Source of the DNA: a virus | Taxonomy: Duplodnaviria > Heunggongvirae > Uroviricota > Caudoviricetes | Strand: one strand, 5' to 3' | Length of the DNA stretch: 7,585 bases | IMG/VR virus record: IMGVR_UViG_2698536372_000007 | Span: 1-7,585 of that record | In this document: positions 2,548 to 2,717 of the stretch, in pieces | Layout of the letters: each line of letters begins with the position of its first letter | How positions within the stretch are numbered: the stretch's first letter is position 1 | Program-made: the position numbers and the translations under genes | Notes under the pieces: generated by a model | The model's input: only the letters and a program-made list of their open reading frames with translations | The model's database searches: none | What the model was told of the DNA's origin: nothing

Positions 2548-2717
2548 AGCACTAATTATCTATTTCTGTTGCCTTCTTCAGTAGATCTGGAGATCGCAAC
2601 GGAGGAAGAAAACTCGTTGCTGGAAGCCTGGAAGAAGTATCGGGTGTTGCTGAACCGTGTTGATACATCAACTGCACCTGATATTGAGTGGCCGGAAGAA
2701 CCAAGATCATCCGAATA
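2548..2717 (+). pseudogene. Orphan 3' fragment of a tail fibre assembly (tfa) gene; no start codon, about 45-55 C-terminal codons only
   Basis: Open frame from the stop at 2545-2547 to TAA at 2716-2718 encodes ...[45 protein letters not shown]. There is no ATG in frame. The [26 protein letters not shown] string matches my recollection of the conserved C-terminus of lambda-type Tfa proteins. Enterobacterial codon usage contrasts with the AT-rich DNA to its left. Confidence 0.6.

Follow-up and report, generated by a model that had tools for sequence, protein, structure and literature searches.

A tail-fibre assembly gene remnant at a prophage junction, with a left joint that very probably lies within a potB-type attachment core

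The stretch of viral DNA analysed here (7,585 nt, in the following called the window) comes from an EHEC chromosome and covers the boundary between two tandem lambdoid prophages. It contains, close to espK, a short piece of a tail-fibre assembly gene (tfa). We take it as practically certain that positions 2581–2703 are the 3' remnant of a lambda-type tail-fibre assembly gene and a pseudogene, and the left joint of this remnant very probably lies within the 12-bp att core of a potB-integrating phage. The stub, which is already flagged as a pseudogene by RefSeq, is ordinary in itself. As a gene remnant doubling as a fossil attR it is a new example, to which the joint at the att core adds a modest new detail. 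It would constitute a dated fingerprint, according to which the espK block now residing on a serT prophage was once located at the right end of a potB-integrating phage. The features of the window are listed in Table 1.

Table 1. Features of the window referred to in the text
Feature	Position	Strand	Basis or remark
IS66-family (ISCro1-like) element, right end	1..96	+	EH2252 annotation of the identical locus; weak PF13817 match
Tail-fibre C-terminal domain gene, prophage A	104..373	+	PF06820, E 1.2e-34
espK cargo	412..2360	-	Hypothetical ORF 490-765, espK 828-2189, AT-rich promoter region; RefSeq annotation
Cargo-side arm, attP of potB-integrating lambdoid phage	2361..2571	+	Stx1a phage LC744186; attL/attR/attB comparison
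potB-type core, truncated	2572..2581	+	CCTTCTTCAG, compared with CCTTCTTATTCA in attP; left joint of the tfa remnant
tfa remnant	2581..2703	+	Conserved C-terminal region of lambda-type tfa; PF02413, identity to C311, PGAP pseudogene
Right joint	2704..2706	+	tfa homology ends at 2703/2704; Evi-type att module from 2707
Cargo-side arm, serT-type attP	2707..2799	+	98.8% identical to the attP region of phage Evi
att core, duplicated 3' 60 nt of tRNA-Ser(UGA) serT	2800..2859	-	Between the two tandem prophages
int-side arm, serT-type att site, prophage B	2860..3000	+	One TATACCAA at 2963-2970
Tyrosine integrase, prophage B	3001..4020	-	PF00589; same protein sequence as the integrase at the far left of prophage A

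Identity and reading frame of the remnant

Translation of 2500–2718 gives a frame which is open from 2548, directly behind an in-frame TAA at 2545–2547, and comprises 56 residues up to its stop codon at 2716–2718. The original prediction, which had put the end of this frame one base short at 2717, had described the upstream stop and the lack of an ATG correctly; GTG is absent as well, and the only in-frame start candidate found at the stub by the ORF finder is TTG 2569. No Shine-Dalgarno-like or purine-rich run ahead of this TTG could be recognised by eye. The frame matches Pfam family PF02413 (Caudo_TAP; lambda Tfa, Mu U) with an E-value of 1.9e-21 (77 bits, cut-off 22.1) over profile positions 85–131 of 131, that is, with the C-terminus only. 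By BLASTP it aligns with residues 140–191 of an intact Tfa of 194 aa from strain C311, identity being complete over residues 151–191, and on the nucleotide level all 123 of the 123 nt of window 2581–2703 are identical to this intact tfa, which belongs to a dusA-integrated prophage. The claim that the frame encodes the Tfa C-terminus is borne out by the Pfam match together with this identity. In Mu Tfa (PDB 5YVQ_B), the region aligned with it is the conserved C-terminal part, chain residues 113–175. At the identical locus of strain EH2252, which is 99.9% identical to the window, the PGAP annotation of RefSeq labels the segment corresponding to window 2578–2718 as 'tail fiber assembly protein; incomplete; missing N-terminus', a pseudogene.

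It had also been predicted that the last ~50 codons of the gene survive. The truncation to the C-terminus is real and the count is too high: only 41 codons of the frame (2581–2703, codons 151–191 of 194) are derived from tfa, while the 11 codons before 2581 come from the potB-type att arm and core, and the last four codons and the stop from the serT-type att module. Of a full-length ORF (~175–200 aa including the N-terminal part), residues 151–191 of 194 are all that is left. There is neither an upstream exon nor an alternative start giving a full-length product, either of which would have spoken against the original prediction, and no second Tfa-like ORF was found in the window, either in the ORF list or by Pfam search. 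Furthermore, the stub does not follow a side tail-fibre gene directly with a usable start and ribosome binding site; it is separated from the tail-fibre gene by espK, on the opposite strand, and by the att arm.

One may ask if the stub is nevertheless functional, either by giving rise to a 49-aa peptide from TTG 2569 which contains the Tfa C-terminal region, or as a small RNA resembling Rfam family IS009. ORF 2569–2718 is indeed open, IS009 (RF02111) matches 2501–2672 with 84.2 bits (E 1.4e-19), and the sequence is kept in about 150 genomes. However, besides the missing ATG or GTG and the missing Shine-Dalgarno-like run, the promoter scan gave no plus-strand promoter-like site within 2150–3050, and the IS009 score stays below the gathering threshold of 117. 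The family itself sits on the tfaD pseudogene of K-12 (L016 2894–3092, 228 bits), and the 3' half of its model is unpaired. Because the family was modelled on this K-12 remnant, the match is plain tfa homology, and the small-RNA idea was rejected. The conservation in about 150 genomes reflects one recent shared block and not selection. A functional stub is therefore very improbable, and most likely it has no present function. As a side result, the 3' half of IS009 is tfa coding sequence, and hits of this family in prophages are largely tfa homology.

The left joint and the potB-type core

At 93% identity, window 412–2578 matches the right end of a prophage located between potC and potB in strain 28RC1, where the sequence runs into potB. 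Stx1a phages (e.g. LC744186), which lack espK, share only window 2361–2578 and then continue into potB. Since these espK-less phages carry the same stretch, the 218 nt from 2361 to 2578 are an att arm and not part of the espK cassette. They are 96–99% identical to the arm in Stx1a phages and in IMG/VR contigs. The assumption that an AT-rich effector cassette begins immediately upstream of the stub is thereby refuted, as its neighbour is this arm together with a truncated core. The left end of record LC744186 was discarded as a source of attL, as it is not potC. The literature records potB as a prophage integration site; our literature search did not retrieve a paper linking espK, potB and a prophage. 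On its minus strand the potB-type arm gives the PotB of the lysogen a replacement C-terminus, which ends in ...KKATEIDN before the stop and not in ...LLNKKVELE (window 2552–2578). In the window this PotB tail is fused to antisense tfa and yields a meaningless, spurious ORF of 52 aa (2552–2710).

The 12-bp core CCTTCTTATTCA was defined from three sites: the attB of K-12 (gagttcca CCTTCTTATTCA gcaaacgag), the attL of 28RC1 (...cca CCTTTTTATTCA taaggcggg, then the integrase) and the attR of 28RC1 (ctatttctgttg CCTTCTTATTCA gcagacgag, then potB). The potB-type integrase is of the WP_000074985.1 type. Intact attP, i.e. CCTTCTTATTCA followed by taaggcggg, is present in IMG/VR contigs L035, L030 and L036. 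Contig L035 begins just 8 nt (TTCTGTTG; ttctgttg) ahead of the core, which is followed by the int-side arm; in the other two the attP junction is complete and the arm has diverged. In the window the sequence is ctatttctgttg CCTTCTTCAG tagatctgg and then enters tfa, so that agreement with attP ends within the core or at its edge. The window shares with the attR of a potB phage the identity of the phage-side arm; it differs from it in that the 12-bp core lacks 3 nt (CCTTCTTCA) and leads into tfa, not into potB. The apparent arm-core-tfa joint is CCTTCTTCAGTAGATCTGG.

Two readings of this joint are equally parsimonious, and as reconstructed from the sequences both place it inside the core. According to the first, the crossover would have occurred at the right edge of the core, with tfa kept from GTAGATC, and TTA would have been lost within the core afterwards. 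According to the second, the crossover would have occurred in CTT (attP CCTTCTT/ATTCA and tfa GCCGCTT/CAGGATGCTGTAGATC, the slash marking the crossover), followed by the loss of the 7 nt GATGCTG from the dead tfa. In this second reading the GCCGCTT immediately left of the crossover is common to the stf and tfa targets. The proposed target sites are GCGCCGCTTCAGGATGCTGTAGATCTGG in tfa and GCAGCCGCTTATCCGTCAGGC in stf. In an alignment made by hand, the tfa site resembles the core weakly, with 5/12 positions in either register. A purely site-specific account is marred chiefly by one extra indel in comparison with attP, and the joint is not a clean product.

The same core has further partners. A scan of IMG/VR with the last 18 nt of the arm yielded ten contigs with four kinds of continuation: potB, stf, a sequence which we call flank Y, and tfa. 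The joint in the interior of stf reads CCTTCTTAT/ccgtcaggc, in fuller form CCTTCTTAT/ccgtcaggcgtgatccc, and the native stf at this site reads gccgCTTATccgtcaggc, in fuller form gcagccgCTTATccgtcaggc; this is a clean crossover in CTTAT, downstream of which the rest of stf and a tfa 3' end follow. The tfa joint of the window recurs base for base in contig L023. The stub there keeps its own stop (..EWLIQP before the stop codon), and downstream of it lie K-12 tfaX/appY-type sequence, an AT-rich spacer and then an ORF whose N-terminus we take to be that of AppY. Window and L023 are identical for ~30 nt past the left joint and then split, the window continuing with the C311 allele (100%) and L023 with the tfaX allele. 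These mosaic alleles therefore indicate homologous exchange inside the stub. The left joint predates the right one and arose independently.

The joint with flank Y is found beside a dinI-like gene and the ssrA att site (attR). Flank Y (TCAGAAGATGGAGTTATCG...; loci L021, L024 and L027) follows the potB-type core in ssrA-linked prophages. In Stx phage 2851 (L029 ~2498) its start lies at almost the same base, there behind an unrelated OspB-like cargo; therefore, not every joint at this position needs the potB-type integrase, and flank Y may represent a shared cargo boundary. Finally, the int-side arm occurs in a 97.7% identical version with an integrase of its own (WP_022581747.1, a different accession) at the 3' end of cusS in strain 99-3311 (L017 2440–2720). 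The native cusS site in K-12 (L018), cttaatCCTTCAGCAAACGg, shares the 11 nt TTCAGCAAACG with the potB attB, which suggests that this integrase family may use more than one site, with cusS as an alternative.

The original prediction had seen in the stub the result of a cassette replacing the 5' part of tfa. In its strict form this means that an AT-rich effector cassette was inserted by illegitimate recombination, with a random breakpoint, into the own tfa of this serT prophage. The cargo upstream of the stub is indeed AT-rich, the joint contains an indel and offers only short microhomology, and O139:H1 and porcine ETEC strains have a serT-linked prophage remnant whose tfa fragment is longer, which demonstrates that serT phages with tfa existed. 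The reciprocal joint, consisting of the 5' part of tfa and the int-side arm, was found in 0 of 5,426 complete E. coli genomes (chimeric query, at least 80% coverage) and in 0 of the 8 IMG/VR contigs holding the int-side arm, which carry only the potC-side attL and the intact attP. Instead of attL and attR together, as for a prophage within a prophage, the attR-like joint stands alone. However, a random breakpoint would have to fall by chance inside the 12-bp att core of a phage of ~50 kb, and at least two other joints not involving potB have their breakpoint at this very core. The 218 nt beside the stub are an att arm also of phages without espK, an identical joint exists outside the serT context in L023, and the stub is 100% identical to the allele of the dusA phage versus 95% to the serT-linked allele of O139. 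We therefore regard such an insertion as unlikely; the joint is attR-like and looks site-specific at the att core, and does not have the appearance of a random replacement.

The serT-type module and the tandem prophages

On the right side, the tfa homology stops 9 nt short of the native stop (...EEPNTM or ...EEPDTM before the stop codon), and the last three codons and the stop are lost. The arm which follows is the same in the serT prophage of O157, likewise from 2707, and in the O139 remnant (L012); the part common to every context starts at 2718. Within it, the terminator scan detected the serT terminator hairpin at 2767–2792. The motif TATACCAA occurs four times at 2722–2752 and once more in the int-side arm, hence on either side of the serT core, with one of the copies inverted. 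One would expect 0.18 instances where five are observed, and none of 200 shuffled sequences reached five. Judged from their arrangement, these repeats are candidate arm-type sites of the serT-type integrase.

Contiguous identity with locus L007 ends at 2859, inside an 88-nt tRNA annotated beside hyaA (anticodon tga). A complete tRNA in the window was considered and rejected, as ARAGORN predicts none and only 60 nt of serT are present. From 2707 to 5841 the window is collinear with the arm-core-arm-integrase region of phage Evi. Thus the site has a duplicated tRNA 3' end, an adjacent tyrosine integrase with contiguous phage arm-core-arm sequence, and clustered repeats, as expected for a serT-type att site. 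That the stub lies next to an att site is correct insofar as a real serT-type att site, consisting of the 60 nt of the serT 3' end with the tyrosine integrase and the TATACCAA cluster, is situated ~80 nt away.

The sequence in front of the arm differs between prophages. Before the position corresponding to 2707, phage Evi and the O157 serT prophage possess an espV fragment, and tfa is absent there. In the decayed serT prophage of O139:H1 and porcine ETEC, a longer tfa fragment is followed by 365 nt and then by the arm, which is shared with the window only from 2718. Because the contexts in Evi, O157 and O139 all carry the arm behind other sequence, the functional serT arm excludes the stub. 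As regards the comparison with related prophages, proposed earlier as a way to define the breakpoint, tfa is entirely missing at this place from phage Evi and the O157 serT prophage, both close relatives in the att module, and the O139-type serT remnant has a longer tfa fragment. No genome was found in which an intact tfa is combined with the 2704/2707 joint when a chimeric query of the tfa 5' part and window 2581–2800 was used; this query matched only the remnants in O139:H1 and porcine ETEC, with the 365-nt spacer and an allele of 95% identity.

In Mu, P1 and e14, tfa genes belong to invertible host-range segments, and the stub lies within 15 nt of an att arm. One could thus imagine that it is kept in reserve as an alternative 3' end within an invertible tail-fibre segment of the type known from Mu (G), P1 (C) and e14 (P), or that it forms part of the functional serT att arm. 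Both are hardly credible. No inverted repeat flanks 2548–2718, for which reason the invertible segment was rejected, the orientation of the stub is that of the tail genes, and neither the window nor the 31-kb locus contains a gene for a serine invertase. The att module works without the stub, as the arms of Evi, O157 and O139 described above make clear.

The left one of the two tandem prophages (prophage A) begins at yccA and comprises a tyrosine integrase, head and tail genes, a tail-fibre gene pair split by an IS66-family element, espK and the stub. The right one (prophage B) comprises an integrase, a DUF4224 protein, an exonuclease, DicB and DicF. Where a strain has only one prophage, stub and arm adjoin a complete tRNA-Ser(UGA) gene beside hyaA, which is serT. 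Prophage A is a hybrid: its integrase, at yccA, is of the serT type and its right end of the potB type. In EH2252 the integrase WP_001299351.1 is annotated at both places (window 3001–4020; locus L015 9224–10243). The tandem serT prophages are identical in this integrase and in the DUF4224 protein WP_000273151.1 and differ in other early genes; it seems that the att-int module is shared or was homogenised between them.

The IS66-family element (ISCro1-like; tnpA, tnpB, transposase), of which window 1–96 is the end (locus L001 9451–12066), is inserted precisely between the N-terminal and the 270-nt C-terminal tail-fibre genes, and bases 1–63 encode the transposase C-terminus. The same two tail-fibre genes are adjacent in phage Evi and in O157, and the tail fibre of prophage A may be uncoupled or inactive. 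Homology to the tail fibres of Evi and O157 begins at window 97; the segment 97–406 is 95–96% identical to Evi and the O157 serT prophage and is the conserved sequence that borders the exchangeable cargo region on the left. In the espK cargo, the promoter scan located promoter-like sites at 2357–2330 and 2313–2286, and the GC content across 2201–2500 is 0.32–0.33. In prophage B, the DicF small RNA was recognised on the minus strand at 7405–7456 (77 bits, above the gathering score), upstream of dicB (7040–7228). Between dicF and dicB there is a 24-nt inverted repeat (7241–7264 / 7375–7398).

About 150 complete E. coli genomes contain the joint of espK, arm and truncated tfa (151 cover at least 80% of window 2420–2720). 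Window 2560–2870 is covered in 171 genomes; the O139-type remnants would roughly explain this excess over 151.

Possible history and comparison with known systems

As the course of events we favour, as reasonably probable, that a potB-type phage carrying espK used its att core to recombine with a pseudo-att site in the tfa of another prophage, and that homologous exchange, also within the stub, spread the resulting block. In a first step, the integrase of this phage, acting at the att core, would have recombined it with a pseudo-att site of weak similarity in the tfa of another lambdoid prophage. The attR-like joint would be the product, and tfa would have lost its first 150 codons. In a second step, homologous recombination between lambdoid prophages may have removed the intervening genome and spread the block of espK, arm and truncated tfa; the conserved tfa 3' segment on the right and the tail-fibre C-terminal gene (97–406) on the left may have served as homology patches. 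In a third step, an illegitimate joint 9 nt before the tfa stop would have fused the block to the serT att module. Since the left joint occurs also with another tfa allele and another downstream context (appY, in L023), the joining event probably did not take place in this serT prophage and the block moved in later. The original prediction of a scar of effector acquisition at the phage right end can be upheld as far as a recombination scar linked to espK is concerned; it probably does not hold for an event in this very prophage, as the joint is present in L023 too.

A wider possibility, which we put forward only tentatively and with some doubt, is that stf and tfa of resident prophages hold pseudo-att sites for the potB-type integrase, and that the stubs, above all the conserved tfa 3' end, then act as portable homology patches which move espK-like blocks between phages whose integrases differ. 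If this were true, effector phages would insert repeatedly into tail-fibre operons, by a route distinct from the use of host-derived attB sites within prophages. If mediated by the integrase, tail-fibre genes would be recurrent landing sites, which would help to explain the shuffling of cargo between integration modules in EHEC. Arm and core followed by a foreign flank provide a simple signature for tracing such blocks, with the strings TCTATTTCTGTTGCCTTC and TTCATAAGGCGGGACAC.

It is known for lambda Int that the att core joins weakly similar secondary sites when the canonical site is not used, resulting in the order arm, core, foreign flank. In contrast to such products, the one in the window carries an indel, and the action of an integrase on tfa or stf is putative here; the independent joints at one core and the near-identical int-side arm at cusS support it indirectly. 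Lambdoid prophages of STEC have been described as integration targets of other lambdoid phages at effector loci (Nakamura et al. 2021, PMC8112680). In those cases the targets are host-derived attB copies (yecE, ykgJ/ecpE, ompW) within prophages, with attL and attR both present. Here, however, the target is a phage gene (tfa, elsewhere stf) and the attR-like joint is alone; potB, serT and tfa do not occur in that paper.

Exchangeable effector loci of lambdoid prophages are said to go back to Tobe et al. 2006. In such a locus the cargo lies between the tail-fibre genes and the att site (PMC8112680). Compared with phage Evi, window 407–2706 replaces a different cargo of 1.2 kb between the same flanks. 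Different from the plain exchangeable locus, the stub and the potB-type arm belong to the exchanged segment and show its previous address.

Similar remnants exist in K-12, where tfaD and tfaX of DLP12 are likewise C-terminal lambda-type tfa remnants in a decayed lambdoid prophage. They cover the same 3' segment and are 86–96% identical to window 2581–2693, and tfaX adjoins an acquired AT-rich cargo (appY). Contig L023 combines both situations, having the window-type joint on a tfaX-type allele with tfaX/appY-type downstream sequence. The K-12 remnants differ from the stub in that they are longer, keep their own stops, have other left breakpoints (in tfaD a fusion to terminase) and are not preceded by a potB-type arm on the left. 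A further candidate for the same breakpoint, in phage mEp460, was rejected, as the homology there fades further upstream and the left boundary is another one. In this phage an unannotated tfa 3' remnant (L004 3001–3124) is placed right after the long tail-fibre gene and before dinI and int.
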